64,000 bases of DNA from Antedon mediterranea (lineage: Eukaryota > Animalia > Echinodermata), in NCBI RefSeq assembly GCF_964355755.1, contig NC_092678.1, positions 8,572,422 to 8,636,421 of the forward strand, in the 5' to 3' direction. Positions 161-41,556 of this stretch are shown here, piece by piece. Under the pieces are notes generated by a model that worked only from the letters and a program-made list of their open reading frames with translations, searched no databases and was not told the DNA's origin. The position numbers were made by a program, and so were the translations under genes. Every line of letters starts with the position of its first letter. The stretch's first letter is position 1.

Positions 161-3100
161 TTAAGTAGATAATATCAATACCATGTCAAGATCGTCGATG
201 CGAAGTACCCCATTCTGACCTACTTCACGTAACAAGAGAATATGATCTCCAGGTTGAGCATTTCTCACAATGTCATCACCAGAAGCAAAGACACGCATCA
301 CGTGATTCCAATCGTGCTTAACCGTTCCAAACACGTCATAGCGACCCTTCTCTGTACCTTCCTTTGCCCTGAGTACAAGAAACAATTTTCCAGTGGAAGG
401 AGAATCAGGATTGTCGTCTGTCCAAGTGCAACCAACGGTCACAGCTCGCAACTTCTGCTTTAGTTCCAAACGATGGTCATCACCAGTAAGGATATTTTCA
501 GGTGCATAACCATGTACAAATCCATAAAAATCAAGCTTAGGGGCAAAATGGATCACGACACTGCTGTGGTTAGGAGTTTCGAGTGGGAGGAATGAAGCTG
601 TTACTTGAAAGGATCCATGACTTCCAGAAGTTTTAGATACAAACCTAAGCTTGTCCCCAATAGCAACTCGCGAAATCAATGCACTTTTATGGATAGTCGA
701 TTCAAGAGGAAACGTTGTGCGAATGGAACCATTTGGCTTGAGGACATTCACAACAACGTTAGACGTTGCTCCAGTTGCATTTAATTGCTTCAATTTTGCT
801 AAGCAACGGATTTCTTCATTGAAAGCAGTTACCGTTTCATTCCTTGGAGAATCAATGAAAGTGATATTGGCAACAAAATTTCTAACGTGCATTGAATGTG
901 ACCCACCTCCACCAACAACAGTCATGAATTGAATGACACTTCCAGGAGGAATTTTTTCACCAATAGAATCCGATTCATAGGTATAGTTTGACCATGAATG
1001 GGTAACCTTTGTAATAAGAACATCAGAAATAACTTGTTTGCAACCGTTTTCGAACACACGTATGTAAATCTTTCCTTTTAGGTTCCCGTGACCTTGATCC
1101 TTTGCCTCAAACTGAACTTTAACCTTTGTTACAGCACTAACACCACAAGGAAATCTCTGTACGTAAAGTGGAACAAGCGATTCCGAGTTGTTTGTATTGT
1201 TAACACTTTGAGATGGAGCAAATACTCTTGTAGTCTCATGAAATGTAAGAACAGCATAAAAGTTCTTCACGTATAGCTTGTGGTGATATTTACGATTTCC
1301 CACACCACACATAAACTTGACTTTATCACCTGTCTCAATAGTAAATGGTAATTCTTTTCCCGAGTTGTATTCGTAAGATGTCCACTCATGGTCTATGAAA
1401 CAATATGCATCATGGAACAGAATGGTTTTCCTTTCTCCTGACGGCTTGATTACAAACATTGCTAAACGACCTTTTTGATTGCCCCATCCTTGGTCCTTTG
1501 CGTCGAATTTAACTTGAACACTCTTTAAATCATGAGATATTAAGACAACGTCATCGTACAGGTCAATATAGTCCCAGTCCGAATCGGCAAACTTTTCCAC
1601 TAGTTCTATTCGTTCGAAGTCAATTGTAGTCAAAGTTTCCATTTGTGGTCTCCCCATGGCAATGTTTAACATCAAATTTCTGACATGAAGAGTGTGTCCA
1701 CCACCCCAGCCTACCCTACACATCAATTGGGCAACAGCACCTATAGGAATGCTTTGATTTTGTTGTAGGTCCCAATTAAAAGTTTTCCATCCCTTATGGA
1801 CCATTACACCACTTGTCAAAGAGTAATCGGTAAAATCCGCCTCCATTGTCTCATTATGCCAAATACGAAGATATACCTCGCCATTTTTTTCTCCCCAATC
1901 TTGATCTTTTGCTTCAAAACTTACATGTATACCTTTAATCGTTGCTACACCAAGAGGAATTCGCTCTGTGTAGAGAGTAATTTTTTGTCCACTATTGTCG
2001 TCCAAGGACACATTCCGAGTAGGACTGAAGATAATTTGGGAAGAGTCACCACTTTTTTCGAAACGGAACTGTGGAGCACCATATGTTATACGGCATGATA
2101 GGTTTTTACAAGTGAGCTCTTTGCCTGTCCCAACAATACACCACAACTCAATACTTCCCCCAAGACCAATATATTCAAGACCAACACTGCTGTTATCAAA
2201 GGAAATTTGTCTCTCAGTAGTTGAATTAATGCTACCACAGATGTCAATATCGTGAAATTCATTAATCTGACAATCATGTTTGCGAAGACGCAGATACAAT
2301 CGACCATCTAAATCTGCCTTCTTGTTTTGAACATTACTAGCTTCTTGTATCTTTACAATACATTCAACTTGAATTCTTGTCACGGGAAGTCCACCTACAG
2401 TTATTGCTTTGTCCATTAATGGTCCCTTGGCATTTGTACGTCCATTGATTACAATATTTGCTGGGGCTTCGTATCCCTGCGTTGTGTTCGCAAGAGTGTA
2501 ATCTGATTGTAAAGATTCTTCTATGTATTTTGTTTTTTTTCTTACTTCAGTTTGAGGGTTATCCAATCCCCAACTACTGATAACGGCGGAACCATATATT
2601 TCTGGGTGTTTTGCAGTCCAATTCTTGAACATATCACCATATTTGTATCTCCAACTCATAGGATTGATGAGACGCATAGATTTCACATGACTGTTTAAAG
2701 CAGCAAGGTTGTCATTTCCACGTACATCATTTACAGTTTTGTCAATTGTTTCCAGTAATGCCTTGACATGAATAATATCTGTTTCTTTAACAGATACTTG
2801 GTTCTTTGTAGGCTTTAATCTCTCAGCCATTTCATGAAATGGATCTAGCTGGATTTCAATTTTGTTCGCAGCATCAGTGGCCGACTGCAAATAGGGGAAA
2901 TCATCTCTTAAACCTTTAGCCAGTTTTGTGCCTGCGTCAACAATCAAAATTGTCTCTTTTGAGCCAAAAATGGGGAATAGCGCTTGTTTAAATTCAGGTG
3001 ATACTTGGTGATCACCTACAGACAAATCCTTTTCAAGTGCTTCTCTGAATGTTTGCAGTTTCTTGGTAAAAGCACTAAAACCTCCACCATTTTTACCACC

Positions 3101-4087
3101 TCCCCATAATTTATTATGTTGTACATGCTTTACACCGATGTTGACAGCACCGTGACCGGGCTTATTGCCTGTAGCACCAGCTCCAGCTCCTCCTGCTTCA
3201 TCATTCCACACATTTTTGCCTTTGTTTTCTAGCAAATTGGCTTCAGTCTGATGAACAAGGTTGTCTTCTCGCATCTTCGTATACCATTCTTTATCAATGT
3301 TTATTTCAACGACACTGCTGCGATTTCCAGCGTCGCCACTTATAAAACCACGTGAATGCTCAGTGCTTTCAGCAATCCAAACCTCGCTTCCTTTGTGGGG
3401 TAGAGGAATTGCCTGATCCGCTATGGCCTTATTACCTGCTTCGTCATTCATGACACGGTAGATTGGCTTTCCAGTAAAATGCTCAGATGTAAGTTGCGTC
3501 AAGCTACCTTCACCTGCCTCTCCAAGACCTGCTAGTCCATCAAAACCAATACCAGCCACAAAGTCGAACTCTTCTCCAGGATCATAGTGACCATTGACCA
3601 TATTTGTCACAACTGATACTTCACCATAAGGGGTGTATTTGTGATGAACTGCTGAATCAACTCCCGTGATGATGCCATCCATTGCAGCTCCAGCTGCAAT
3701 ACCTCCCAAGAATGCCCCAGCCGGCCCTCCAGCAAAAAAACCGGCAGCTCCTCCTGCAATAACACCCAAAGTTCTACTGGCAGCCTTCATAGAGGCATCA
3801 CCTGCCGCTTTGTTTCCAGTAGCATATTCGATCGCTCCTTTTATATGACCAAGAACGGGAATGCCATCAGCAAAATGCCCTAAACTTTCAGCAAACTCCT
3901 CCTGTGTCTCTTTAGCACCCTCTGAGTCTCCTTCAATGGCTTGAACGGCTGAAGTGATCTGGGACAAAACAGGAAAAGTGTGGAGAAAATGTTCCTGAGT
4001 TCTCTTTGCACCTTCTTTATCCCCAGAAATAACTTGAATAAGAGACTTGATTTGGCTTACAATCGGAATGCTGTCTGTGCTGCCCAT
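161..4087 (-). CDS. 1308-aa uncharacterised multidomain protein, single coding exon; putative toxin-like architecture (N-terminal helical repeats, Gly zipper, ART-like domain, tandem DQGWG beta-sandwich repeats); paralogue A
   Basis: Uninterrupted 3.9-kb ORF. A near-identical intact paralogue lies at 31165-35085. A polypyrimidine/AG acceptor (ttttttacctcaatttttag|G ATG) sits immediately before the start. Function is inferred from motifs only. Confidence 0.9.
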   Translation of the reverse strand: MGSTDSIPIVSQIKSLIQVISGDKEGAKRTQEHFLHTFPVLSQITSAVQAIEGDSEGAKETQEEFAESLGHFADGIPVLGHIKGAIEYATGNKAAGDASMKAASRTLGVIAGGAAGFFAGGPAGAFLGGIAAGAAMDGIITGVDSAVHHKYTPYGEVSVVTNMVNGHYDPGEEFDFVAGIGFDGLAGLGEAGEGSLTQLTSEHFTGKPIYRVMNDEAGNKAIADQAIPLPHKGSEVWIAESTEHSRGFISGDAGNRSSVVEINIDKEWYTKMREDNLVHQTEANLLENKGKNVWNDEAGGAGAGATGNKPGHGAVNIGVKHVQHNKLWGGGKNGGGFSAFTKKLQTFREALEKDLSVGDHQVSPEFKQALFPIFGSKETILIVDAGTKLAKGLRDDFPYLQSATDAANKIEIQLDPFHEMAERLKPTKNQVSVKETDIIHVKALLETIDKTVNDVRGNDNLAALNSHVKSMRLINPMSWRYKYGDMFKNWTAKHPEIYGSAVISSWGLDNPQTEVRKKTKYIEESLQSDYTLANTTQGYEAPANIVINGRTNAKGPLMDKAITVGGLPVTRIQVECIVKIQEASNVQNKKADLDGRLYLRLRKHDCQINEFHDIDICGSINSTTERQISFDNSSVGLEYIGLGGSIELWCIVGTGKELTCKNLSCRITYGAPQFRFEKSGDSSQIIFSPTRNVSLDDNSGQKITLYTERIPLGVATIKGIHVSFEAKDQDWGEKNGEVYLRIWHNETMEADFTDYSLTSGVMVHKGWKTFNWDLQQNQSIPIGAVAQLMCRVGWGGGHTLHVRNLMLNIAMGRPQMETLTTIDFERIELVEKFADSDWDYIDLYDDVVLISHDLKSVQVKFDAKDQGWGNQKGRLAMFVIKPSGERKTILFHDAYCFIDHEWTSYEYNSGKELPFTIETGDKVKFMCGVGNRKYHHKLYVKNFYAVLTFHETTRVFAPSQSVNNTNNSESLVPLYVQRFPCGVSAVTKVKVQFEAKDQGHGNLKGKIYIRVFENGCKQVISDVLITKVTHSWSNYTYESDSIGEKIPPGSVIQFMTVVGGGGSHSMHVRNFVANITFIDSPRNETVTAFNEEIRCLAKLKQLNATGATSNVVVNVLKPNGSIRTTFPLESTIHKSALISRVAIGDKLRFVSKTSGSHGSFQVTASFLPLETPNHSSVVIHFAPKLDFYGFVHGYAPENILTGDDHRLELKQKLRAVTVGCTWTDDNPDSPSTGKLFLVLRAKEGTEKGRYDVFGTVKHDWNHVMRVFASGDDIVRNAQPGDHILLLREVGQNGVLRIDDLDMVLILST

Positions 4088-4088
4088 C

Positions 4089-4125
4089 CTAAAAATTGAG
4101 GTAAAAAATACGTGATTGCTGTTTA
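4089..4125 (-). promoter_or_regulatory. 3' splice acceptor of the 5'UTR intron of gene A
   Basis: Minus strand reads ...aatcacgtattttttacctcaatttttAG|gATGGGC. The same acceptor precedes gene B (~35087-35120). Confidence 0.75.
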
Positions 4126-4333
4126 ATCATATTTGAGTGGGGTTGGTGAGCCTCATGCCAAAATACGCAAAAAATTGCAAAAATACGCAAATTGAGGGCG
4201 CTATGCTTTGCCAAAATACAGCCAAAATAAGCAAATCATGCCAAAATACGCAAATTGAGTGCGTGTTGCTTTGACAAAATACACAAATCATGCAAAAATA
4301 CGCAAATTGAGGGCGCTATGCTTTACCAAAACC

Positions 4334-6524
4334 CAGAGCCATATATATAGAGAGTTACGGCATTGAATGGATTAGAAGCCGTGTTTGGGTCCAACTATTC
4401 CTATGTAGCGTATGGAGTTGAGTCTTTTGTTTTGAAAATGTATAACGTTCAAAAGGCTTTAATTATCGAATTTAATATCAAAACAATCAATTTGATTAAA
4501 GGTTTTTGTTAAAATAATAAAAAAATTATAAAGTTTTACTGCGAACATGATTTAAAACAACAAAAATAGCAATTTCGGAACGACTCTGGTTGCAGGGGTG
4601 GCGCCAGGATCTTCCCGACGCGGGGGCTACATTCCCCGACGAGGGGGCTATGCGAGCGAAGCGAGCATCACTAGGCTGGGGGCCAGGGGGCCGCCAAGGG
4701 CCCCCGGTGGGGGTCCAGGGGGCGAAGCCCCCGGAAGCAACGCGTTCTAGCGTCATTTGAGGTCATTTTAATCAGATTTAGGGTAGCCATTTTTTCCATT
4801 TTTTATAATGCATAAATAAAATACTGCGTGCAAAAAAACGATGCGCGATGACTGTTTCAATCCATATTTTTCAATTTAAAAAATAAAAGTTCAAAGAAAA
4901 TTTAGAAAAATAGAGTTGGAGGTCCCGGAAATTGGACTTAATATACTTCAAAACATGAAACAAAATAGTCCCTATCATGGTTGTGACTGAGCTAAGAAAT
5001 TTTTGAAAAATAGAGATGTTAGGTCGCGGAAAATGCACTTCTTGTACTTCGAAATATGACCAGCTTTATTGTTGGGGCTGAGCTAAGAAACTGTTTAAAA
5101 CTAGAGCTGCAGGTCTTAAAAAAATTGCATTTTATACTTTGGAAACATCAGGCCTAGAGGCTTAAAAAACGCAAGCGTAGAGCTTTTTCAGTCGGGGAAA
5201 TAAGTTTATTCCTCCCAAGTGTATGCGTGCGTACTATCTGGACTTCCGAGTGGTGAGAAATTCATGACATACAGGACATTGAAAATGTAATAACTTAGCT
5301 ATAATAAGAAAATGGCATGTTTTTTTGTTTAGTAATGGATGAAAAATTTATTTTAGGTGCCCCACGGTACAGAAGGTTACTTGTAAATTAAAAAATTGGT
5401 GAACATACGAACAATTAACATAATTCGTTTTTGCTGTAGTGTAGCGTACGTCGACGCAGTACACGACGTAACCGTCAGTAAACTTCGCCTGGAAAATAAC
5501 TACAGTACACATTTTGGTCCCTGGATGGAACATGATATTACGCGTCTCGACCCAACGTTGAACGATTCGTACAAAGGGATGCCGCCAGACAAGTGCGAAC
5601 CTAGCTATTGTTTAGTAGTAAGTTAGGTCGCTGGCAATAATGAATGCATATAAAGTGCATAATATCACTCTGACGTACTCTCACGGTCAATGAAACGTCG
5701 CGGTTTTCTAGGCGCTGAAGCTAGCTACGAAGTGAACGCGAACGCTTTTTACTGTATATTATATTCCCCGACAAAAAGTACCCGTGTTCCCTTCGGTAAC
5801 CGTCGGTAAACTTCGCCTGGAAAATAACTAAATTACACATTTTGGTCCCTGTATGGAACTTGATATCACGCGTCTCGACCCAACGTTGAACGATTCGTAC
5901 AAAGGGATACCGCCAGACAAGTGCGTACCTAGCTAATGTTTAGTAGTAAGTTAGATCGCTGGCAATAAATGAATGCATAAAAGTGCATAATAGCCCTCTG
6001 ACGTACTCTCACGGTCAATGGAACGTCGTGGTTTTCTAGGCGCTGAAGCATGAAGTGAACGCGAACGTTTTTTACTGTATATTATATTCCCCGACAAAAA
6101 GTACCCGTGTTCCCCGACGGGGGGGCTAGGCTCCCCGACGAGGGGGCTAGAGCCCCCGTAGCCCCCCCGCTGGCGCCACCACTGTCTGGTTGTGCGCTCC
6201 ATGCACGCTCTACGCGTACGCGTTTAGTTTGTACAGCAATTCTGTATAGTAATGCATTGTTTTTACATTTTGTTGTTTAAAATCATGTTCGCAGTAACTT
6301 TATGATTTCGTTATTATCTTAACAAAAACCTTTAAACAAATTGATTGTTTTGATATTAAATTCAATATTTAAAGCCTTGTGAATGTTATGCATTTTGTTA
6401 AGCAAATGACTCGACTCCATACGCTACATAGGCATAGTTGGACACAAACATGGCCGGCGTGCACACCACGTGACTTTCTAAAATCCGTGAACGCAAAGTC
6501 GTACTCTCTCTATATATTGCTCTG
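4334..6524. mobile_element. hAT-like non-autonomous element with ~200-bp imperfect TIRs
   Basis: Ends cagagc..tatatagagag / ctctctatatattgctctg. 8-bp TSD ccaaaacc at 4326-4333 and 6525-6532. 4380-4560 is the inverted copy of ~6270-6450. Confidence 0.8.
4593..6184. mobile_element. hAT-like non-autonomous element nested in 4334-6524
   Basis: TIR caggggtggcgccag / ctggcgccaccactg. 8-bp TSD tctggttg at 4585-4592 and 6185-6192. Internal ~330-bp tandem duplication (~5467-5790 vs ~5797-6112). Confidence 0.85.
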
Positions 6525-6537
6525 CCAAAACCAAAAC

Positions 6538-8366
6538 CGTATCCGGATATTCACCCTCTGGACATTTACCCCCCGGAAAACTACCCCCCGGACAACCACC
6601 ACCTGGACCACTACCCCCTTAGGACAACTACCCCTTTAGGACAACTACCCCCCGGACAAATACCCCCCGGCCAACTACCCCCTTAGGACAACAACCCCCT
6701 TAGGACAACTACCCCCTGGACAACTACCCCCGGAGAATTACCCCCTAGGAACAATTACCCCCGGACAATTACTCCCCCCCCCCCGGGTAATTACCCCGCG
6801 GACAACTACCTCTGACACAATACTCCCCGTAGGACAACTACTTCCTGGACAATACTCCGAGGGAAAATAATCTTTTAGGACAACTACCTCCGTAGGACAA
6901 CTAACCCCTGGACAACTACCCCCGGACAATTACCCCCTAGGAACAATTACCCCCTGACAATTACCCCCCGGAGAATTACCCCTTCCCCCGGGTAATTACC
7001 CCGCGGACAACTACCTCTGACACAATACTCCCCGTAGGACAACTACTTCCTGGACAATACTCCGAGGGCCAATAATCTTTTAGGACAACTACCTCCGTAG
7101 GACAACTAACCCCTGGACAACTACCCCCGGACAATTACCCCCTAGGAACAATTACCCCCTGACAATTACCCCCCGGAGAATTACCCCTTCCCCCGGGTAA
7201 TTACCCCGCGGACAACTACCTCTGACACAATACTCCCCGTAGGACAACTACCTCCTGGACTTGGATAATACCCCGAGGGCAAATAATCTTTTAGGACAAC
7301 TACCTCCGTAGGACAACTAACCCCTGGACAACTACCACCCAGAAAACTATCCCTTTAGAGCAACTACTTCCCGGACGGACAACCACCCAGACCATTCAAC
7401 AACCTGACTCTGCAACAGTGTATAATAGGAATTAATAACTATATTTTAATTCGTTACTTTGACAAATTACTATTCATTATTGTAAACAAAAGTAAAAGAT
7501 TGAACATAAATATAGCCTGGTATAAACTGAAGATTGTCACACATGATCATAGGATAGTCGAACGTATTATACAGTGACTCCCTGTATTTACTGTAAAGAC
7601 TGGGTTCGCTAATAATAATAATAATAATTTTTGCGTCAGGACAATGCTTCGATAACCACTGGTCTTAAAAGAATTAATTTTTGTCTGAAATTTGTCATAT
7701 ATGTATTTTTGTACACTTGAAGAATAATATCACTTTTGACCTTAATGTTCACTCACCGAATAAACGGCGATCTTTAAATAAATTCCCCTCAAATAAACGG
7801 TGACCATGTCACTCCCATAAAACATCTTATGGAATAATCGGCGTCTATTTCCATTAGATTATACCCCCTTCCATTGAATAAACAACTTTCTTCCAATAAA
7901 TGTCCACCTAAAAACCACCTAAACAATAAACAGCCCAGGCCGTTTTTTCAATAAATACGGTACTTTAAATCTCGCACATCTAGGGTCTAGCATGCTGTTA
8001 AACAGAATAATCAGTTAAAAACGGGTGTTTCGAAACCAGAGACCCGTTGACCGGGGGGGGGGGGGGGAAGGGGGGGGTAGTTGAGGGGGGGGGGGTAGTT
8101 CTGTAGTTGATCGGGGGTAGTTGACCGGGGGTAGTTACCCGGGGGTAGTTATCCTAAGGGGGTAGTTATCCTAAGGGGGTGGTTGTCCGGGGGGTAGTTG
8201 TCCGGGGGGTTGTTATTCTTAGGGGATAGTTGTCCTAAGGGGGTAGTTGTCCGGGGGGTAGTTGCCCGGGGGGTAGTTGCCCGGGGGGTAGTTGTCCTAA
8301 GGGGGTAGTTGTCCGGGTGGTAAACATCCGGGGGGTAACTGTCTAAGGGGTAGGTGTACTAGAACC
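6538..8366. mobile_element. Foldback/Mutator-like MITE with C-rich (ggacaactaccccc)n left arm and G-rich inverted right arm
   Basis: Array at 6560-7390 and its reverse complement at 8050-8355. Flanked by an approximate 9-bp duplication (a/t)accaaaac. Absent from the paralogous site at ~35280. Confidence 0.7.
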
Positions 8367-9444
8367 TACCAAAACACACAAATCATGCCAAAAGAGACAA
8401 ATCTGCTTTGCCAAAATACACAAATCATGCCTAAAAACACAAAGCTATTTTTTATTAGGGAAAAAACAATTTGCGTGTTTTGGCATGATTTGCGTATTTT
8501 GGCAAAGCCGATTTGTGCTTTTCGGCATGATTTGTGTATTTTGACAAAGCATAGCGCCCTCAAATTGCGTATTTTGGCATGATTTGTGTATTTTGGCATG
8601 ATTTGCGTATTTTGACATGATTTGCGTATTTTGGCAAAGCATAGCGCCCTCAATTTGCGTATTTTGGCAAAGCAGATTTGCGTATTTTAGCATGATTTGT
8701 GTATTTTGGCAAAGCAAAACGCCCTGAATTTGCGTATTTTGGCATGATTTGTGTATTTTGGCCAAGAAGATTTGCGTATTTTGGCATGATTTGCGTATTT
8801 TGGCAAGGCATAGCGCCCTCAATTTGCGTTTTTTGGCATGATTTGCGTATTTTGGCAAAGCAGATTTGCGTATTTTGACATGATTTGTGTATTTTGGCAA
8901 ATCAGATTTGCGTATTTTGGCATGATTTGTGTATTTAGGCAACGCAAAACGCCTACAATTTGCGTATGTTGGCGTGATTTGTGTATTTTGGCAAAGTAAT
9001 AGGCCTACGCCCTCAATTTTTGTAATTTGGCATGATTTGCGTATTTTGGCAAAGCATAGCGCCCTCAATTTGCGTATTTTGGCAAAATTCTTGCGTATTT
9101 TGGCAGGCTACTCACCAACCCTAATGTCATGTTTATATTTCTAAATAAACTAAAATATTTTGAACAAAAGAATATTTACTATGATATTTACTTTACATTT
9201 ATAAATGCGAAACAATTCATTTTTGCAGCATTCTAACGTTTTCTTGATTGAAATATAAAAATGAACGAAATATCATGGATCTATTATTAGTAAGATTTTA
9301 GTGGTAAGCGCTATACAAGAGTATAATGAATAATAATAAAGCATATGAATATTCATTAGGCAAAATCGTACGTATGTAGGCCTAAACATTAGCATTAGTG
9401 CTTTTAAGCAAGGAAAAACTAATCTGTTCATATATGAACATTTA

Positions 9445-9846
9445 TATGGCGAACCAAGTCCGCCAAAAGTCCTCAATCCATACCGTTCACCATCAATGCA
9501 TTTATAATCAATCCTAAACCATTTATTTAAAAATTCAACGCGAAAATAAGATATTTGTTAGCTAACCTCATGATGATTGGTTTGGTTTCCCAATGTCTCG
9601 TCTGGTCTGGCGATGAATCATTTGACTTCTTCACGAAGATCGATTTGACTTCGCGATGAATGGTTTGGCATGGCAATGCATGGCTTGACAATGAATGGTT
9701 TATTTGACAATGAATTGATTTTAATAATAATAACAAATGCTTTGGCTAGATGGTGATTTAGTTTTTTAAATGACGGATTTGGATTGATTATTAATGCATC
9801 GTGAATGGTATGGATTTAGGACTTTTGGGGGACTTGGCTTGCCATA
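9445..9846. mobile_element. IS3EU-like MITE
   Basis: TATGG...CCATA termini, ~75-bp TIRs and a 6-bp TSD cattta. Same element at 37207-37618, so it predates the duplication. Confidence 0.7.
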
Positions 9847-10234
9847 CATTTAGTAAAGAATATTAAGCGCTTAACAACAAGATAACCATTTATAAACAAA
9901 AAATAAAAATAAATCTTATTAAAACTAGATTTGAACTCGTCACTTTCCACGAGTTAGGTCATCCACACGTTGAAATATTAACGCACAGACTGATTATGTC
10001 ATCTTATTATATGAAGTAAAGAAATTAATGTTACAGTACTTAAATTTGTGTCATCTGTCAAATGAATTTCATATTACATGAAAGCTTAACTTATTTTCTA
10101 CATAGGCCTTGGCTAGGGCTAAGCATATTTGCTAAAGTGTGAGAAGATGAAGATAAAATTGTGAATCAGAAAAATGCGCAGAAAGTCACAAGTGAGTTCA
10201 TGACAGAAGAACATATAAACCACAATAAGCAGAA

Positions 10235-10460
10235 AGTTGAGGAAAGAGAAGAATGGTTGTTGAAGAAAGAGAGGAATGGTTGTTGAGGAAAGAGAGGAAT
10301 GGTTGTTGAGGAAAGAGAGGAATGGTTGTTGAGGAAAGAGAGGAATGGTTGTTGAGGAAAGAGAGGAATGGTTGTTGAGGAAAGAGAGGAATGGTTGTTG
10401 GGGAAAGAGAGGAATGGTTGTTGAGGAAAAAGAGGAATGGTTGTTGAGGAAAGAGAGGAG
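10235..10460 (+). repeat. 23-bp minisatellite (ttgaggaaagagaggaatggttg)n
   Basis: About 9-10 tandem units. A shorter array lies at the paralogous site 40145-40250. Confidence 0.9.
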
Positions 10461-11038
10461 CATGAACAGAAGAAGGTAACTGACTACAAAAAAAGTAAAA
10501 TTGTTACACAAACAAGAAAGCAGTGAGCGCTTCGAAGGAACAGTCCGAAAACGAAGGTATGGCAGGAAAAAACCCCCAAAAATATATTATTCTTAAGAGT
10601 ATACATTATAATATATTTACCCCATTGTAATTTCCTGGTGAAGTTCGTAACTTTAATTATATGAATTTGCACTGTATAACACTAAATGTTATATGAGCTA
10701 GAAATATAAATAAACAACATAAACTGTTCCAATGGGTCAAAGATCAAAAAGCGGATATGTCTACTTCAGGAAATCCATCTAACAAAAGAGTGTTTGGGAA
10801 GGTGAAGCGATCCATAGTATAGGTAATTCACATAGTAGAGGAGTTTAGATACTATTAAGAAAGTGTCTTGAATGCAAAATTGTTAAAAAGGTTAATTGAT
10901 CTAATATTATATATATATATATATTTCTTAATTCAATGATAAATTGAAAAATCATTGGTCATTATAAATAAATAGGCATTGTACAGCAATGAATAAACAA
11001 ATAAAACGCAATCTAATCAATATAAAGATAATACTTAC

Positions 11039-11190
11039 TTTTTATTTTAAGAAGTAACTTGACTAAATGTTAAATCAGATTCAGTTTTGATGTTAGAACT
11101 TCGTTGAATGGATTTTCTCTGTATGCTGCTATTCTTGAATGGCTAAACTTGCTAAATTCTGATATTTTTTTTTTTGCAAGTGCATTTATA
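11039..11190 (-). promoter_or_regulatory. Candidate core promoter (TATA + Inr) and non-coding exon 1 of gene A
   Basis: TATAAAT at 11190-11184, TCAGAA initiator-like motif with its A at 11160 (30 bp downstream), and GTAAGT donor at 11038-11033. All three are conserved in copy B. Confidence 0.55.
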
Positions 11191-30720: not shown

Positions 30721-31164
30721 TGATCTTCAGATTAAGGCAAGTATTGCAGATAAAATATCTAACCAATGCACTTGACATATCGATACATGTGAAATAAATT
30801 TGATTTTACTTTTGGATACCTTTGCGAAATAAATTGCCTATATCGCAGGATTTTAACATGATTAAATTTTAAAGAAGTTGTGGGAAATTTTGTCTGAAAT
30901 TTTTTTGTTACTTTATAGTTGTTTATTTTTCTTGTTATCCTTGTTTTCTCCTAATAATGATCTTTTTAAAATGTCCTAATTATATCATATGTTTTGTTAT
31001 TTTGCTATTATTGAAATATAATTGATGTTCTTGAAAAGGAAATGAAAGGAACAAGATTGTACCCAGAAGATTATCCCTCCCTTAAAATGAATTGACTTGA
31101 AATAAAAAATGACGACGTCAGGACTGCAATATATGGGGAACTCGGGTCTGGGTTAAAGTTAGGC

Positions 31165-34100
31165 CTAAATAGAGAGTATCAACACCATGTCAAGATCGTC
31201 GATGCGAAGTACCCCATTCTGACCTACTTCACGTAACAAAAGAATATGATCTCCAGGTTGAGCATTTCTCACAATTTCATCATCAGAAGCAAAGACACGC
31301 ATCACGTGATTCCAATCGTGCTTAACCGTTCCAAAAACGTCATAGCGACCCTTCACTGTACCTTCCTTTGCCCTGAGTACAAGATACAATTTTCCAGTGG
31401 AAGGAGAATCAGGATTGTCGTCTGTCCAATTGCAACTAACGGTCACAGCTCGCAGCTTCTGCTTCAGTTCCAAACGATGGTCATCACCAGTAAGGATATT
31501 TTCATGTGCATAACCATGTACAAATCCATAAAAATCAAGCTTAGGGGAAAAATGGATCACGACACTGCTGTGGTTAGGAGTTTCGAGTGGGAGGAATGAA
31601 GCTGTTACTTGAAAGGATCCATGACTTCCAGAAGTTTTAGATACAAACCTAAGCTTGTCCCCAACAGCAACTCGCGAAATCAATGCACTTTTATGGATAG
31701 TCGATTCAAGAGGAAACGTTGTGCGAATGGAACCATTTGGCTTGAGGACATTCACAACAACGTTGGATGTTGCTCCAGTTGCATTTAATTGCTTCAATTT
31801 TGCTAAGCAACGGATTTCCTCATTGAAAGCAGTTACCGTTTCATTCCTTGGAGAATCAATGAAAGTGATATTGGCAACAAAATTTCTAACGTGCATTGAA
31901 TGTGACCCACCTCCACCAACAACAGTCATGAATTGAATGACACTTCCAGGTGGAATTGTTTCACCAATAGAATCCGATTCATAGGTATACTTGGACCATG
32001 AATGGGTGACCTTTGTAATAAGAACATCAGAAATAACTTTTTTGCAACCGTTTTCGAACACACGTATGTAAATCTTTCCTTTTAGGTTCCCGTGACCCTG
32101 ATCCTTTGCCTCAAACTGAACTTTAACCTTTGTTACAGCACTAACACCACAAGGAAATCTCTGTACGTAAAGTGGAACAAGCGATTCCGAGTTGTTTGTA
32201 TTGTTAACACTTTGAGATGGAGCAAATACTCTTGTAGTCTCATGAAATGTAAGAACAGCATAAAAGTTCTTCACGTATAGCTTGTGGTGATATTTACGAT
32301 TTCCCACACCACACATAAACTTGACTTTATCACCTGTCTCAATAGTAAATGGTAATTCTTTTCCCGAGTTGTATTCGTAAGATGTCCACTCATGGTCTAT
32401 GAAACAATATGCATCATGGAACAGAATGGTTTTCCTTTCTCCTGACGGCTTGATTACAAACATTGCTAAACGACCTTTTTGATTGCCCCATCCTTGGTCC
32501 TTTGCGTCGAATTTAACTTGAACACTCTTTAAATCATGGGATATTGAGACAATGTCATCGTACAGGTCAATATAGTCCCAGTCCGAATCGGCCAACTTTT
32601 CAACTAGTTCTATTCGTTCGAAGTCAAGTGTAGTCAAAGTTTCCATTTGTGGTCTCCCCACAGCAATGTTTAACATCAAATTTCTGACATGAAGAGTGTG
32701 TCCACCACCCCAGCCTACCCTACACATCAACTGGGCAACAGCACCTATAGGAATGCTTTGATTTTGTTGTAGGTCCCAATTAAAAGTTTTCCATCCCTTA
32801 TGGACCATTACACCACTTGTCAAAGAGTAATCGGTAAAATCCGCCTCCATTGTCTCATTATGCCAAATACGAAGATATACTTCGCCATTTTTTTCTCCCC
32901 AATCTTGATCTTTTGCTTCAAAATGTACATGTATACCTTTAATCGTTGCTACACCAAGAGGAATTCGCTCTGTGTAGAGAGTAATGTTTTGTCCACTATT
33001 GTCGTCCAAGGACACATTCCGAGTAGGACTGAAGATAATTTGGGAATAGTCACCACTTTTTTCGAAACGGAACTGTGGAGCACCATAGGTTATACGGCAC
33101 GATAGGTTTTTACAAGTGAGCTCTTTGCCTGTCCCAACAATACACCACAACTCAATACTTCCCCCAAGACCAATATATTCAAGACCAACACTGCTGTTAT
33201 CAAAGGAAATTTGTCTCTCAGTAGTTGAATTAATGCTACCACAGATGTCAATATCGTGAAATTCATTAATGTGACAATCATGTTTGCGAAGACGCAGATA
33301 CAATCGACCATCTAAAACTACGTTCTTGTTTGGAACATTACTAGCTTCTTGTATCTTCACAATACATTCAACTTGAATTCTTGTCACGGGAAGTCCACCT
33401 ACAGTTATTGCTTTGTTCATTAATGGTCCCTTGGCATTTGTACGTCCATTGATTACAATATTTGCTGGTGCTTCGTATCCATGCGTTGTGTTCGCAAGAG
33501 TGTAATCTGATTGTAAAGGTTCTTCTATGTATTTTGTTTTCTTTCTTACTTCAGTTTGAGGGTTATCCACTCCCCAACTACTGATAACGGCAGAACCAAA
33601 TTTGTTTGGGTGTTTTGCAGTCCAATTCTTGAACATATCACCATATTTGTATCTCCAACTCATAGGATTGATGAGACGCATAGATTTCACATGACTGTTT
33701 AAAGCAGCAAGGTTGTCATTTCCACGTACATCATTTACGGTTTCGTCAATTGTTTCCAGTAATGCCTCGACATGAATAATATCTGTTTTCTTAACAGATA
33801 TTTTGTTCTCTTTAGGCCTTAATCTCTCAGCCATTTCATGAAATGGATCAAGCTGGATTTCGATTTTGTCAGCAGCATCAATGGCCGACTGCAAATGGGG
33901 GAAATTATCTCTTAAACGATTGGCCAGTGTTGTGCCTGAGTCAACAATCAAAATTTTCTCCTTTGTTCCAAAAATAGTGAATAGCGCGTTTTTAACTTCA
34001 CCTGATAGTTTTATGTGATCACCTACAGACAACTTCTTAAGTGCTCCTCTGAATGTTTGCAGTTTCTGAGTAAAAGCACTAAAACCACCTTTACTACTAC

Positions 34101-35085
34101 CCCATATTGCATTATGTTGTACATGCTTAACACCGATGTTGACAGCACCGTGACCGGGCTTATTACCTGTAGCACCAGCTCCAGCTCCTCCTGCTTCATC
34201 ATTCCATACATTTTTGCCTTTGTTTTCTAGCAAATTGGCTTCAGTCTGATGAACAAGATTGTCTTCTCGCATCTTCGTATACCATTCTTTATCAATGTTT
34301 ATTTCAACGACTCTGCTGCGATTTCCAGTGTCGCCACTTATAAACCCACGTGAGTGCTCAGTGCTTTCAGCAATCCAAACCTCGTTTCCTTGGTAGGGTA
34401 GAGGAACTGCCTGTTTCTCTATAGCCTTATTACCTGCCTCTTCATTCATGACACGGTAGATTGGCTTTCCAGTGAAATGCTCAGATGTAAGTTGCGTCAA
34501 GCTACCTTCACCTGCCTCTCCAAGTCCTGCTAGTCCATCAAAACCGATACCAGCCACAAAGTCGAACTCTTCTCCAGGATCATAGTGGCCATTGACCATA
34601 TTTGTCACAACTGATACTTCACCATAAGGGGTGTATTTGTGATGAACTGCTGAATCAACTCCCGTGATGATGCCATCCATTGCAGCTCCAGCTGCAATAC
34701 CTCCCAGGAATGCCCCAGCCGGCCCTCCAGCAAAAAAACCGGCAGCTCCTCCAGCAATAACACCCAATGTTCTACTGGCAGCCTTCATAGAGGCATCACC
34801 TGCCGCTTTGTTTCCAGTAGCATATTCGATCGCTCCTTTTATATGACCAAGAACGGGAATGCCATCAGCAAAATGCCCTAAACTGTCAGCAAACTCCTGC
34901 TGTGTCTCTTTAGCACCCTCTAAGTCTCCTTCAATGGCTTGAACGGCTGAAGTGATCTGGGACAAAACAGGAAAAGTGTGGAGAAAATGTTCCTGAGTTC
35001 TCTTTGCACCTTCTTTATCCCCAGAAATAACTTGAATAAGAGACTTGATCTGGCTTACAATCGGAATGCTGTCTGTGCTGCCCAT
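31165..35085 (-). CDS. 1306-aa paralogue B of the toxin-like multidomain protein
   Basis: Intact ORF, collinear with 161-4087. Differences are only substitutions plus in-frame indels; same acceptor before the ATG. Confidence 0.9.
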   Translation of the reverse strand: MGSTDSIPIVSQIKSLIQVISGDKEGAKRTQEHFLHTFPVLSQITSAVQAIEGDLEGAKETQQEFADSLGHFADGIPVLGHIKGAIEYATGNKAAGDASMKAASRTLGVIAGGAAGFFAGGPAGAFLGGIAAGAAMDGIITGVDSAVHHKYTPYGEVSVVTNMVNGHYDPGEEFDFVAGIGFDGLAGLGEAGEGSLTQLTSEHFTGKPIYRVMNEEAGNKAIEKQAVPLPYQGNEVWIAESTEHSRGFISGDTGNRSRVVEINIDKEWYTKMREDNLVHQTEANLLENKGKNVWNDEAGGAGAGATGNKPGHGAVNIGVKHVQHNAIWGSSKGGFSAFTQKLQTFRGALKKLSVGDHIKLSGEVKNALFTIFGTKEKILIVDSGTTLANRLRDNFPHLQSAIDAADKIEIQLDPFHEMAERLRPKENKISVKKTDIIHVEALLETIDETVNDVRGNDNLAALNSHVKSMRLINPMSWRYKYGDMFKNWTAKHPNKFGSAVISSWGVDNPQTEVRKKTKYIEEPLQSDYTLANTTHGYEAPANIVINGRTNAKGPLMNKAITVGGLPVTRIQVECIVKIQEASNVPNKNVVLDGRLYLRLRKHDCHINEFHDIDICGSINSTTERQISFDNSSVGLEYIGLGGSIELWCIVGTGKELTCKNLSCRITYGAPQFRFEKSGDYSQIIFSPTRNVSLDDNSGQNITLYTERIPLGVATIKGIHVHFEAKDQDWGEKNGEVYLRIWHNETMEADFTDYSLTSGVMVHKGWKTFNWDLQQNQSIPIGAVAQLMCRVGWGGGHTLHVRNLMLNIAVGRPQMETLTTLDFERIELVEKLADSDWDYIDLYDDIVSISHDLKSVQVKFDAKDQGWGNQKGRLAMFVIKPSGERKTILFHDAYCFIDHEWTSYEYNSGKELPFTIETGDKVKFMCGVGNRKYHHKLYVKNFYAVLTFHETTRVFAPSQSVNNTNNSESLVPLYVQRFPCGVSAVTKVKVQFEAKDQGHGNLKGKIYIRVFENGCKKVISDVLITKVTHSWSKYTYESDSIGETIPPGSVIQFMTVVGGGGSHSMHVRNFVANITFIDSPRNETVTAFNEEIRCLAKLKQLNATGATSNVVVNVLKPNGSIRTTFPLESTIHKSALISRVAVGDKLRFVSKTSGSHGSFQVTASFLPLETPNHSSVVIHFSPKLDFYGFVHGYAHENILTGDDHRLELKQKLRAVTVSCNWTDDNPDSPSTGKLYLVLRAKEGTVKGRYDVFGTVKHDWNHVMRVFASDDEIVRNAQPGDHILLLREVGQNGVLRIDDLDMVLILSI

Positions 35086-35134
35086 CCTAAAAATTGAGGT
35101 AAAAAAAAACGTGATTGCTGTTTAATCATTTTTG

Positions 35135-36643
35135 AGTGGGGTTGGTGAGCATCATGCCAAAATACGCAAACCATTGCAAAAATACGCAAATTGAGGGCGC
35201 TATGCTTTGCCAAAATACAGCCAAAATAAGCAAATCATGCCAAAATACGCAAATTGAGGGCGCTATGCTTTGCCAAAACACACAAATCATGCCAAAAATA
35301 GGCAAATCTGCTTTGCCAAAATACACAAATCATGCGAAAATACGCAAATTGAGAGCGTTTTGATTTGCCAAAATACACAAATCATGCCTAAAAACACAAA
35401 GCTATTTTTGATTAAGGAAAAAACAATTTGCGTGTTTTGGCATGATTTGCGTATTTTGTCAAAGCCGATTTGTTCTTTTCGGCATGATTTGTGTATTTTG
35501 GCAAAGCATAGCGCCCTCAAATTGCGTATTTTCGCATGATTTGTGTATTTTGGCATGATTTGCGTATTTTTGCAAAGCATATTTGCGTATTTTGGCATGA
35601 TTTGCGTATTTTGGCAAAGCATAGCGCCCTCAATTTGCGTATTTTGGCAAAGCAGATTTGCGTATTTTGGTAAAGCAGATTTGCGTATTTTGGCAAAGCA
35701 TAGAGCCCTCAATTTGCGTATTTTGGCATGATTTGCGTATTTTGGCAAAGCAGATTTGCGTATATTAGCATGATTTGTGTATTTAGGCAAAGCATAGCGC
35801 CCTCAAATTGCGTATTTTGGCATGATTTGTGTATTTTGGCATGATTTGCGTATTTTTGCAAAGCAGATTTGCGTATTTTGGCATAAATTGCGTATTTTGG
35901 CAAAGCATAGCGCCCTCAATTTGCGTATTTTGGCATGATTTGCGTATTTTGGCAAAGCAGATTTGCGTATTTTGGCATGATTCGTGTATTTTGGCAAAGC
36001 AGATTTGCGTATTTTGGCATGATTTGTGTATTTTGCCAAAGCAAAACGCCCTCAATTTGCGTATTTTGGCATGATTTGCGTATTTTGGCAAAGCAGATTT
36101 GCGTATTTTGGCATGATTTGTGTATTTTGGCAAAGCAGATTTGCATATTTTAGCATGATTTGTGTATTTTGGCAAAGCAGATTTGCGTATTTTAGCATGA
36201 TTTGTGTATTTTGGCAAAGCAAAACGCCCTCAATTTGCGTATTTTGGCATGATTTGTGTATTTTGGCAAAGAAGATTTGCGTATTTTGGCATGATTTGCG
36301 TATTTTGGCAAGGCATAGCGTCCTCAATTTGAGTATTTTGACATGATTTGCGTATTTTGGCATGAAGCAGATTTGCGTATTTTGGCATGATTTTTGTATT
36401 TTGGCAAAGCAGATTTGCGTGTTATGGCATGATTTGCATATTTTGGCATGATTTGTGTATTTTGGCAAAGCAAAACGCCCTCAATTTGCGTATTTTGGCG
36501 TGATTTGTGTATTTTGGCAAAGTAATACGCCCTCAATTTGCGTAATTTTGCATGATTTGCGTATTTTGGAAAAGCATAGCGCCCTCAATTTGCGTATTTT
36601 GGCAAAATTCTTGCGTATTTTGGCAGGCTACTCACCAACCCTA
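35135..36643. mobile_element. Host MITE with tttgcgtattttggcatga satellite arrays (paralogue of 4138-9123 without the nested inserts)
   Basis: Same termini and flanks as copy A; longer right-hand array. Confidence 0.8.
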
Positions 36644-37206
36644 ATGTCATGTTTATATTTCTAAATAAACTAAAATATTTTGAACAAAAGAATATTTACT
36701 ATGATATTTATTTTACATTTATAAATGCGAAACAATTCATATTTGCAGCATTCTGCCGTTTTCTTTATTGAAATATATAAATTAACGAAATATCATGGAT
36801 CTATTATAAGTAAGATTTTAGTGGTAAGCGCTATAAAAGAGTATAATGAATAATAATAAAGCATATGAATATTCATTAGGCAAATCGTACGTATGTAAAC
36901 ATTAGCATTAGTGCTTAACGACGTAAGCGAAGTGATGGCCAACAGCTAAAACCAAATAAATAATAATAATTGTCACGATAACAGAAAAGTAGGCCTAAGA
37001 AAAACTATATTTTGTGAAAAACTTTCTCCCATTCAAGAGGTGCATAGAACCCCTCACTTGTAACTACTCACATGTCATCCCTTGCCTATATAACTTATAA
37101 CACTCTTCCTGATGCTCATGTTTGCTTATAGTATTTTAAACAGACAAATTTGATAGTAGACTGGTCCAAGCAAGGAAAAACTAATCTGTTCATATATGAA
37201 CATTTA

Positions 37207-37618
37207 TATGGCAAGCCAAGTCCGCCAAAAGTCTTCAATCCATACCGTTCACCATCAATGCATTTATAATCAATCCAAACCATTTATTTAAAAATTCAAC
37301 GCGAAAATAAGATATTTGCTTGAACAACAGCTAACCTGATGATGATTGGTTTGGTTTCCCGATGTCTCGTCTGGTCTGGCGATGAATCATTTGACTTCTT
37401 CACGAAGATCGATTTGACTTCGCGATGAATGGTTTGGCATGGCAATGCATGGCTTGACAATGAATGGTTTATTTGACAATGAATTGATTTTAATAATAAT
37501 AACAAATGCTTTGGCTATATGACGGTGATTTAGTTTTTTAAATGATGGATTTGGATTGATTATGAATGCATCGTGAATGGTATGGATTTATGACTTTTGG
37601 GGGACTTGGCTTGCCATA
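37207..37618. mobile_element. IS3EU-like MITE (paralogue of 9445-9846)
   Basis: TATGG...CCATA termini; TSD cattta. Confidence 0.7.
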
Positions 37619-37781
37619 CATTTAGTAAGGATTATTAAGCGCTTAACAACAAGATAACCATTTATAAACAAAAAATAAAAACAAATCTTATTAAAACTAG
37701 ATTTGAACTCGTCACTTTGCACGAGTTAGGTCATCCACACGTTGAAATATTAACGCACAGACTGATTATGTCATCTTATTA

Positions 37782-39915
37782 GGCCTAAAAAAAAATTTGT
37801 TTGCTGTCATCCGCCGCCCCTAATTTCGCAAACAATTTGGGGCAGAGATAAGAAAAAGTTTTTTTTTACGTTGAGGGCGCTTTAAAAAAAAAGTTTTTTT
37901 ATGATTTTTTTTGGCCGAAAACAATAAAAATAATAACGTAGCGTATATTTCGGTGTATAATCGCACTTTTGACACTCAAATTTAACCTCTAAATTAAGGG
38001 TGCGTCTTATACACCGAACATAAATGCCTCAACACACAGATATCGCCACTAATCAAAGGCTGGACCACCGGTGGTATTTTCATGATAAAAAATATTATCA
38101 AATACATGCCAACATCATGTTAAATGCTGTTTGGATATTTAATTGTTCGTTTTAGGCAATTTATTTAGTAAAAACTGCCGTATAAACAGTTCGCTTTATC
38201 AACCGGGCGCTACGATATCGTGACCGGGCGTGTTGGTGTTTACGCGTTTTCACGAGGGATAGTTTAATAATATTCTTATATTTAACTTGTTTCTGGTAAA
38301 ACAAATAAATGTTAATGAAATTTAACATTTTATCCTGTTAATAACATGTATTTTATACTAATCTATATCATAAAAACAATACTTAATTTACCGGGCGTAG
38401 AGTAGTACGGAGCAATGGTAAAGAATAGGCCGTGTTGAGTAACGATTCGTTGATTTTTGGTGTTGCTGTGTTAGGCCTTTTTTGTGAACTAATTTAGCAT
38501 GTTAGTAAATAATTGTCTGTAAAAGTGAATGTACACTAGTTTGTTAATAAATATGTATTATAAAATAGTTTACAATTGCAAAATATATTATCATAATTCT
38601 ATTTAATGTGACATGTATAATATCTATTAAATCAAGTCTTATTTAGTATGTATACATCCGCCCTTATGAGGGCGGGCATCACTCTCTGGAGCTCTCTGTT
38701 ACAAATTTCTCATGCAAAAATCGCGGAATACTCATTCTTGTGATATATATTATTTGGTATTACCAAAGAACTTATAACACAAGAATCTCCTGTTCGTCCG
38801 AAGCGCGTAACAATTTCGAAAGGCATTGTGGGATAGAATAGAGCTATGGGTGGTGCCATTGTGAGCCATGGAGTAGGGCGCCCGCATCAAATTAGAAAGT
38901 CAAAATCATAGAGGGGATCTGCTAATGCTCTAGGGGGGATAGAGTAATTGACTGAGGAGTAGGGCGCCCACATCAAATTAGAAAGTCAAAATCATAGAGG
39001 GGATCTGCTAATGCTCTAGGGGGATAGAGTAGTTGACTGAGGAGTAGGGCGCCCGCATCAAATTAGAAAGTCAAAATCATAGAGGGGTTCTGCTAATACT
39101 CTAGGGGGGGGGGGGGGGGGTAGAGTAATTGACTTCCTAGTTTGGAGGGGGCGCTGCTCCATGCAGTGAAATGGCGTCGCTCAGTTTGACCTTTTAACCC
39201 TGCACTTCCGATACTGTGTTTTGAATGCAAATTGAAGAACAGGAGATTCTTGTGTTATAAGTTCTTTGGCATTACTAAAGAGTAGGCCTAGCCCAGCTAC
39301 AGTGTACTAGCGTAAAAGCAACCTGCTAGTTTTCAAGGCATTTTAGCGTGATTTTGTACTAAATATGATGAAAAGATTTGTTCATTGAGCTGTTTTAGGC
39401 GCTCCGATAAAATTTCATTTGTAAACGTTTACGATTGGAATAGTATTATAGTTATACGCATGACCGTCGTACCCCCAGCGCGAGCGAGCCCTTCTTGGCA
39501 ACCACATGGTGTAGTGCAGTATTCGACTAGAATATTCTCCAGTTGATTATAGCATTGACCTAGCGTACATACTTCTAGGATACATAGATAGTTAGGGGGT
39601 GCGTTTTATACACAGGTGCGACTTATACACCGAAATATACGGTACACTAACTTCTAAAATATTTAATTAGGCCTGCTAACAACGACCTACTGTGTAGTAG
39701 GCCTAGCCTAGGCTAGTTTAGACACGGGGCCTAACGCGCCCAAAACAGAATTAAAGTGTGAAACAAATTATGAATAGATGTTTGAGCTCGTTGTTTTATT
39801 CAGTGTGTTTTGTTACTCTCAAATTCGCGTACAATTAACAGAGAAATTAACATAAAAAAAAAAAATAAAAAAAATTTTTTTCCAACTTGACAGCAAACAA
39901 TTTTTTTTTTAGGCC
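37782..39915. mobile_element. TTA-flanked DNA transposon with two further nested MITEs (37941-39642 TA-flanked Tc1/mariner-like; 38763-39269)
   Basis: Outer TIR ggcctaaaaaaaaa.ttgtttgctgtca, with the empty site atcttattatatgaag at ~10001. Inner TIRs are cgtatatttcggtgtataa and ccaaagaacttataacacaagaatctcctgttc. An ~85-bp tandem repeat x3 lies at 38870-39135. Confidence 0.8.
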
Positions 39916-41556
39916 TTATATGAAGTAAAGAAATTATATTACAGTACTTAAATTTGTGTCATCTGTCAAATGAATTTCATATTACATGAAAGCTTAACTT
40001 ATTTTCTACATAGGCCTTGGCTAGGGCTAAGCATATTTGCTAAAGTGTGAGAAGATGAAGATAAAAGTTGTGAATCAGAACAATGCGCAGAAGGTCACAA
40101 GTGAGTTCATGACAGAAGAACATATAAACCACAATGAGCAGGAAGTTGAGGAAAGAGAAGAATGGTTGTTGAGGAAAGAGAGGAATGGTTGTTGAGGAAA
40201 GAGAGGAATGGTTGTTGAGGAAAGAGAGGAATGGTTGTTGAGGAAAGAGAGGAGCATGAACAGAAGAAGGTAACTGACTACAAAAAAAGTAAAATTGTTA
40301 CACAAACAAGAAAGCAGCGAGCACTTCGAAGGAACAGTCCGAAAACGAAGGTATGGCAGGAAAAAAAACCCCAAAAATATATTATTCTTAAGAGTATACA
40401 TTATAATATATTTACCCTATTGTAATTTCCTGGTGAAGTTCGTAACTGTATAACACTAAATGTTATATGAGCTAGAAATATAAATAAGCAACATAAACTG
40501 TTCTAATGGGTCAAAGATCAAAAAGCGGATATGTCTACTTCAGGAAATCCATCTAACAAAAGAGTGTTTGGGAAGGTGAAGCGATCCATAGTATAGGTAA
40601 TTCACATAGTAGAGGAGTTTAGATACTATTAAGAAAGTGTCTTGAATGCAAAATTGTTAAAAAGGTTAATTGATCTAATATTATATATATATATATATTT
40701 CTTAATTCAATGATAAATTGAAAAATCATTGGTCATTATAAATAGTTATGCTCTTAATGAAATCAAACATAGAAGTGCTTTCTTCATGACCATACATAAA
40801 CAAATGTTACAATGACTTTATGAAGGGAATGGTAATTTTATTATTCTAGGTGGGGATCTGTATTGCATCATGAATAGTGACGACATTGACCAAAAAAGGT
40901 AGCGCAAATAGGCTATGCAAATCTTAACATTTATCTATTCCATTCACATACTATTTATATATTAAATATTTCACCATTGCTCTGAAACCTAATTATGTCT
41001 GTTTTCATTCAACAACAAGCATTTCCTGACATATTCTTATATTCATCACACTGAACTGATTAATAAATGGCGGGACGTTTTTTGAAATTGGTGGATGTGA
41101 AATTTGAACAAGGAGTGGAGTTGTGGCTTGGTGAATGTTTGGCTACCAATCCAAGGGTCCTGGGTTCAAGTCTTGTCATATTAAAAAATAATAATAACAA
41201 CTGCCAGTCGAAGAATCTAAACCCAAAACGAATTTTTAAAATATTGCCGGAACTGGCACTCATGATTCATAAAATCATTTTTTTGGGTAAGGGGAGGGGG
41301 GGGGGGGGCGGGGAGAGTGTGTAATTTTTAATTAACCTACTTTCCTACAACAGTTCAAACGTGATGAGAGCATTTTAGGAATAATGGACATGTTTGTAAA
41401 GATTTGTGCCGTTTAAAAACTGCAATAATCATTTGTTGAAAAATTAGGAAATGTATAGCATTTATTATATTTTGAAGAAAACAAAAGGCATTGTACAGCA
41501 ATGAATAAACAAATAAAAACCAAACGTAATCTAATAAATATAAAGATAATACTTAC

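Follow-up and report, generated by a model that had tools for sequence, protein, structure and literature searches.

Introduction

Pierisin and MTX join an ADP-ribosyltransferase (ART) domain to ricin beta-trefoil repeats, and FBXO27-type glycan sensors are myristoylated cytosolic proteins with a beta-sandwich recognition domain. Pierisin and MTX form an ART class in the sections of Zhang et al. 2012 (PMC3482391) available to us, which also hold that the majority of eukaryotic toxins do not correspond directly to the polymorphic toxins of bacteria, the fungal killer toxins coming closest. Atypical ART triads are known among bacterial polymorphic toxins, as given in the available parts of PMC3482391, PMC9825190 and PMC13617354, and the available part of PMC9933517 places the chitinase BtCht9 among single-exon ChtPE chitinases suspected of horizontal gene transfer (HGT). 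Here we describe a 64,000-nucleotide stretch of the crinoid Antedon mediterranea (NC_092678.1, positions 8,572,422 to 8,636,421; hereafter the window), where two paralogous genes encode a protein made of an N-terminal helical and Gly-zipper module, an enzyme-like domain and C-terminal jelly-roll repeats. Judged by sequence comparison, these proteins likely belong to a polymorphic-toxin-like family of eukaryotic effectors, whose shared and conserved N-terminal module is followed by tails unrelated to one another.

A conserved N-terminal module with unrelated tails

The window contains two long, intact open reading frames (ORFs) on the minus strand, each a single coding exon: paralogue A at 161-4087 (1308 aa, P0001) and paralogue B at 31165-35085 (1306 aa, P0002). 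Both are open throughout, and their products are 94% identical (1229 of 1309 aligned columns). Search relatives outside the set with the full architecture align to the first ~190 aa alone, which correspond to a module of aa 1-195 (3503..4087, minus strand) with a Met-Gly myristoylation-type start, three helical repeats (aa 5-105) and a Gly/Ala zipper. Pairwise scores between the helical repeats were matched by 0, 0 and 3 of 1000 shuffles. The zipper (aa 105-146; 3650..3775, minus strand) holds seven GxxxG steps within the most hydrophobic stretch of the protein (KD19 up to 1.53), and is predicted to be a membrane-inserting helix. The preliminary description of this DNA, made from the letters alone, had claimed two intact paralogues, three helical repeats at aa ~5-105 and a hydrophobic Gly zipper, and all three claims hold.

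A hidden Markov model (HMM) of the module matches 38 of the 44 proteins collected. Its bearers include crinoids, the flatworm Macrostomum, rotifers (Rotaria), the springtail Orchesella, the tardigrade Paramacrobiotus, Hemiptera (Lygus, Apolygus, Bemisia and Myzus) and the raphidophyte Fibrocapsa. The module had no matches in 301 Pseudomonadota genomes (profile A6, run without a positive control) and none in viral contigs, and profile A1, also without a positive control, gave 0 matches in 2 Pseudomonadota genomes and subsequently in 401. Above cut-off, the module has no counterpart in Pfam, NCBIfam or PHROGs. This extends to the window proteins as a whole, for which Pfam, NCBIfam, PHROGs and PADLOC scans returned nothing above cut-off, in keeping with the earlier remark that no named family was recognized for the protein. 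Weak FIST, C19orf12 and tape-measure matches of window proteins or domains were set aside as Gly/Ala composition. In P0034, four copies of the module's helical repeats are accompanied by an Ifi-6-16 domain where the Gly zipper would sit.

Behind the module, the 22 tails of at least 60 aa fall into 9 BLAST clusters; the tails of P0016, P0022 and P0023 fell outside this set owing to spurious domain ends, a parsing artefact. The crinoid enzyme-like domain has a relative in the P0029 tail (17.6 bits, a score reached by 0 of 500 shuffles), so at least eight unrelated tails remain. The P0011 tail, considered as another relative of that domain, was rejected since its score was reached by 31 of 500 shuffles. 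Across the 38 module-bearing proteins a constant N-terminal module is thus combined with unrelated enzyme-like domains, and the modular, polymorphic-toxin-like logic proposed for the crinoid protein is borne out, with its repeats predicted to form jelly-rolls like those of binding domains.

The tails themselves are diverse. Two carry a deaminase-like CAE..CxxC motif and seven an NCxxC motif. The two CAE..CxxC proteins, P0014 and P0015 (Macrostomum and Rotaria), have no Pfam match for the tail, and tblastn of P0015 and P0024 against plasmids found no match. A profile from five hemipteran-type members matches YopQ/YopK (8brf) at E=0.003. The hemipteran proteins P0006, P0007, P0008 and P0060 are of secreted type and carry this YopK/papain-like domain, to which three of them add a GH18 chitinase and chitin-binding repeats; within Hemiptera the chitinase is present or absent, some rows being possibly partial. 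BtCht9 is classified as a chitinase, and Myzus LOC111041156 is unnamed. P0004 and P0005 combine the module with four short Cys-poor repeats, presumably PAN/apple-like, KH-like domains and a weak C-terminal DQG-type domain.

Gene structure and the start of the protein

One of the four runs examined, X4, shows a loose end at position 4088 whose sequence maps both to 11040-11069 and to 41558-41587, and a contig from this run spans the gap, joining a non-coding 5' exon to the coding exon across a GT-AG intron. The joint was absent from run X1 when both runs were re-examined. The joined contig is a spliced form, read most simply as mRNA; the run type is unrecorded, and none of the runs is on record as RNA. 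The intron of paralogue A is 6950 nt long (4089..11038, minus strand), with a GTAAGT donor at 11038 and a TTTTTAG acceptor at 4089, and exon 2 starts one base 5' of the ATG. The 3' end of the upstream exon (11039..11100, minus strand) holds an in-frame stop. For paralogue B an intron with the same donor and acceptor motifs is predicted at 35087..41556 on the minus strand, behind the 3' end of a predicted non-coding exon (41557..41618, minus strand) that again holds an in-frame stop. A satellite with 19-, 42-, 52- and 94-bp units lies in both orientations within the introns (4157-4331, 8488-9105 and 35156-36625), where its copies build large imperfect inverted repeats close to the splice acceptor.

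In both copies a stop codon lies in frame within the upstream exon, so the protein truly begins at the Met-Gly and splicing adds no signal peptide. The first 35 aa reach a maximum KD9 of only 1.39, and there is no coding exon upstream, in agreement with the earlier claim that the protein lacks a signal peptide. The N-terminus instead reads MGSTDS, with Gly2 and a small residue at position 6 as in myristoylation sites. Among the 38 module proteins, 19 are leaderless, 10 have a hydrophobic leader, 3 have other leaders and 6 are truncated, and the myristoylation pattern is found in 17 of the 19 leaderless members against a background of 2.5%. The conserved Met-Gly start and the missing signal peptide favor a cytosol-made, membrane-anchored effector over an exported AB toxin. 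We read the crinoid protein as a myristoylated defense effector of this kind, in which the repeats would recognize, the Gly zipper would insert into or cross a membrane, and the ART-like domain would modify a target; we infer these functional steps, and we give the reading as a whole slightly less than an even chance.

The alternative of an exported single-chain AB toxin, released non-classically or from storage, with repeats that bind foreign cells and an N-terminal module that translocates the ART domain, seems to us unlikely. The ten members with hydrophobic leaders indicate that the module is able to act outside the cell, and the order of delivery module, enzyme and binding repeats recurs in the hemipteran proteins with chitinase and chitin-binding repeats, as it does with the weak DQG-type C-terminal domain of P0004. 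Vip3 and Cry binding domains are also among the fold matches of the crinoid repeats. Against this stand the leaderless crinoid proteins, whose 5' exon is unable to supply a leader, and the retention of the Met-Gly motif in nearly all leaderless relatives.

The enzyme-like domain

Residues 205-346 (3050..3475, minus strand) form an enzyme-like domain, likely of ART fold, marked by R211, W237, E240, S241, H244, S245, F248 and E297. The domain motifs listed in the preliminary description are present, and the numbering of R211 and E297 is correct. Six related rows all keep Y210, E240, S/T241, H244, S/T245 and F248, while R211 and W237 are kept in five of six. E297 is kept in the four rows that reach the site, all crinoid, and D296 varies. 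The STS-like serine, S241, falls after the predicted strand 2 (V236-W237-I238-A239, in a low-confidence model) and not on it.

As criteria for an ART we used a six-strand split beta-sheet (4-5-2/1-3-6) and an Arg or His on strand 1. Y210-R211-V212 lies on a predicted strand, in accord with the second of these. An AlphaFold2 model of aa 1-350, with a predicted local distance difference test score (pLDDT) of 38, runs strand-helix-strand-helix-strand-helix across 209-274, with strands at 209-212, 236-239 and 259-262. An R-S-E (cholera-type) ART would have a Ser or Thr of an STS motif on strand 2 and its catalytic Glu on strand 5; the region around E297, with pLDDT below 30, is unmodeled. Fold searches with this model gave only generic helical matches covering aa 71-164. 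The spacing W-x-A-x4-H-S-x2-F resembles what we take to be the PARP strand-2 motif. In the part of PMC9825190 available to us, TreTu has R6, H31 on strand 2 and F41, and R211, W237 and F248 show nearly the same spacing; the Arg-to-Glu distance is 86 here and 94 in TreThr, which the available part of PMC13617354 reclassifies as R-Y-E.

Searches by sequence returned little. The domain has no family match in Pfam, NCBIfam, PHROG or PADLOC scans and no PDB sequence match; aa 204-349 match nothing in Pfam at E up to 2, hence neither PF15633 nor PF24691 (Tox-ART-HYD1 and TreTu_C). No PDB chain of a pierisin, MTX or Scabin catalytic domain appeared at E up to 10, and PDB searches with P0001 and profiles A1, A5 and A8 gave nothing credible. 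Matches were likewise absent in tblastn against plasmids and phages and in locus scans of viral and genome contigs. HYD1 and TreTu members were sought for profile-profile comparison, with 0 found in 1, 300 and 301 genomes. Two candidates were discarded: a metagenome match, as low complexity in an unrelated locus, and the phmmer match P0044, as a repeat artefact.

On balance an ART fold for aa 205-346 is probable, and we lean, by a narrower measure, toward the prediction that the domain is an active NAD-using enzyme. W237 may take the second triad position instead of S241, while the conservation of S/T241 keeps R-S-E possible. An improbable alternative is that the Gly-zipper module itself kills, as in a Vip3- or microcin-like membrane-damaging effector, and that aa 205-346 are a non-catalytic spacer or a domain of another fold. 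This fits poorly with the retention of catalytic-type polar residues in a domain that is otherwise the fastest to diverge, and with the complete Cys/His or CAE..CxxC motifs of other tails.

The C-terminal repeats

The preliminary description counted about five beta-rich repeats and compared them to the lectin domains of pierisin and MTX. Four of the five are firm. An HMM built from five outside domains only finds copies in P0001 at aa 686-811, 825-949, 957-1077 and 1204-1305 (20-58 bits), corresponding to R2 (aa 686-812; 1652..2032), with DQxWG..G and GGGH motifs, R3 (aa 824-950; 1238..1618), R4 (aa 956-1078; 854..1222) and R5 (aa 1180-1308; 164..550), all on the minus strand. The fifth (aa ~573-670) is weak, at 4.4 bits after one extra HMM round; it belongs to the divergent and weakly supported R1 (aa ~545-670; 2078..2455, minus strand), absent from Anneissia. 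A conserved segment between R4 and R5 (aa 1084-1178; 554..838, minus strand) is unmatched by the repeat HMM.

The repeats are unlike the ricin B-type beta-trefoils of those toxins: R4 is predicted with pLDDT 85 as a jelly-roll beta-sandwich, a fold of carbohydrate-binding modules and lectins, with no ricin Pfam match. In the model the repeats look like carbohydrate- and receptor-binding domains, and sugar binding is putative. The same domain stands behind an F-box in P0041. A PEP-CTERM surface protein of Arsukibacterium (L003:2845-3342) consists of one DQGWGN jelly-roll domain, at E=4e-7 to R4.

Paralogues, duplication and genomic setting

The P0001 cluster has three members, the third being P0045 (XP_071959762.1), a 1308-aa Antedon mediterranea paralogue encoded outside the window. 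P0045 diverges most in the enzyme-like domain and has WNNE in place of WNDE. The sole full-architecture homologue found is a protein of Anneissia japonica (966 aa, 69% identity), which lacks about aa 350-700. Between P0001 and P0002, the ratio of nonsynonymous to synonymous differences per site (pN/pS) is 0.44 overall, 0.13 for aa 1-195, 0.37 for aa 196-346 and 0.73 for aa 347-520, values that are uncorrected and drawn from small counts. The last of these regions (2528..3049, minus strand) is a domain of unassigned fold with no counterpart in Anneissia, in which pN between A and B is highest.

These data bear on the further idea that the protein is a domesticated, non-toxic signaling or housekeeping enzyme, anchored at a membrane, equipped with recognition repeats and acting on the animal's own proteins, which we consider quite doubtful. 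Intact genes under purifying selection, the identity to the other crinoid and the use of the repeat domain in F-box proteins would suit it. The family's scattered occurrence, its tandem expansion, the domain gained or lost between the two crinoids and the unrelated tails are, however, typical of conflict genes.

The genes lie in a tandem segmental duplication, whose second copy (30997..64000) matches 1-20356 in nine collinear blocks (9381 aligned bases, 80-96% identity). By tblastn, the window has only the two full copies of the P0001-type gene. Neither an immunity gene nor orphan toxin cassettes were seen there, the remaining long ORFs being derived from long interspersed nuclear elements (LINEs) or overlapping a LINE ORF. 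One LINE lies in two frames at 24975-27054 (plus strand), with an endonuclease (PF03372) and a reverse transcriptase fragment (PF00078); at 54460-60972 (plus strand), inside the second duplicate, are two LINE ORF2-type frames of 803 and 821 aa, with a 420-aa coiled-coil ORF1-like frame without Pfam match at 57115-58377. Mirror-arranged 40- and 52-bp tandem arrays at 46189-47880 make up a large inverted repeat that may be a foldback element or one like a miniature inverted-repeat transposable element. Contamination, or an insert that was acquired horizontally and is not expressed, would account for the single coding exon and the GC content of 40-42% against about 32-35% across much of the window, but is largely refuted already and barely credible given the GT-AG intron with its joined contig, the LINE neighbors, the orthologue in another crinoid and the absence of the module from the Pseudomonadota genomes and viral contigs searched.

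Discussion

The recurrence of the front module in many animals and protists, where it is joined to unrelated toxin-like enzymes, makes the crinoid protein a likely defense effector. We propose that its initiator Met would be removed and Gly2 myristoylated, holding the protein on a membrane, and that the Gly-zipper hairpin would insert into or cross a membrane. The repeats would likely bind a target surface, recognizing glycans or protein on the exterior of an invader or on a damaged compartment, and aa 205-346 would cleave NAD+ by means of R211, E297 and, on strand 2, an aromatic residue (W237, with F248). It is conceivable that the outcome is a modified protein or nucleic acid.

Several observations weigh against this proposal. 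The ART fold has no direct support from the model, with its pLDDT of 38; no ART came up at E 10 or better in family or PDB sequence searches, and phmmer against 1.84 billion representatives found one genuine relative of the domain, the 71-aa fragment P0043. In Atlas, unnamed bacterial and phage proteins of 117-129 aa rank highest (0.81-0.82), and the only named families, Tox-ART-HYD1 and TreTu (0.79), are no more than leads, since a score of 0.8 is expected by chance one time in three. The conservation of E297 concerns four crinoid sequences only, and P0029 is without the Arg. The fold matches of R4 are generic, with template modeling (TM) scores of 0.35-0.58 at 4-15% identity, and capsids and TNF domains are among them. 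As for myristoylation, the motif is identified by pattern in sequences that are related to each other, and Met-Gly members were part of the set from which the module HMM was made. Tail assignments of the other members draw on motifs and one weak PDB match. In a 34-row module tree (13 near-duplicate ids and rows spanning fewer than 120 module positions omitted), whose backbone lacks resolution, tail type tracks lineage or clade, so recent tail swapping within a genome is not shown. Finally, the window holds no immunity gene.

The family is apparently undescribed, and its shared module with different tails is newly noted here. The literature searched, which included few subscription papers and excluded the supplements of domain surveys that may list them, holds no description of the family or its accessions; nor do the available parts of PMC3417536, the VopU preprint and the Lipocone preprint describe it, and the available part of PMC9933517 makes no mention of the N-terminal module of BtCht9. 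More broadly, and as a tentative proposal that we rate as somewhat unlikely, eukaryotes might have a widespread polymorphic-toxin system of their own, built on a ~190-aa helical/Gly-zipper module that is myristoylated or secreted and carries ART, deaminase and YopK/papain-like warheads with surface-binding repeats, including a new R-W-E-type class of animal ART toxins; some 'chitinases' of sap-feeding insects would then be secreted effectors. If so, a chromosomal animal and protist family that pairs a single constant module with many different enzyme tails would close the gap stated by Zhang et al. 2012, and crinoids, rotifers and flatworms would gain candidate immune or defense effectors. Hemipteran proteins called chitinases or left unnamed would receive a new annotation, and a new ART subtype would be accompanied by a new jelly-roll recognition domain common to F-box, bacterial surface and effector proteins.

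Comparison with known systems

Unlike FBXO27-type sensors, the crinoid protein has no F-box, and no FBA domain is among the fold matches listed. It differs from Vip3 and Cry pore-forming toxins in lacking sequence similarity and in its intervening enzyme-like domain, the fold matches being generic, and from the fungal killer toxins zymocin and PaT in having no chitinase and in consisting of one chain whose gene is chromosomal rather than carried by a linear plasmid. BtCht9, a hemipteran member of the family, is itself of the ChtPE group and has chitin-binding domains of plant or fungal type (available part of PMC9933517). As with pierisin and MTX, an animal gene places a putative ART domain before tandem binding repeats; here an N-terminal Gly-zipper module is added, the repeats are jelly-rolls rather than beta-trefoils, and the enzyme-like domain has no sequence match to solved ARTs. 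From bacterial polymorphic toxins the crinoid genes are set apart in being chromosomal, eukaryotic and intron-bearing, with an internal enzyme followed by binding repeats, tails that track lineages and a window in which neither an immunity gene nor an orphan cassette was seen. What the two have in common, as those toxins are presented in the available parts of PMC3482391, PMC9825190 and PMC13617354, is a constant N-terminal trafficking module joined to interchangeable deaminase-, papain- and ART-type domains.

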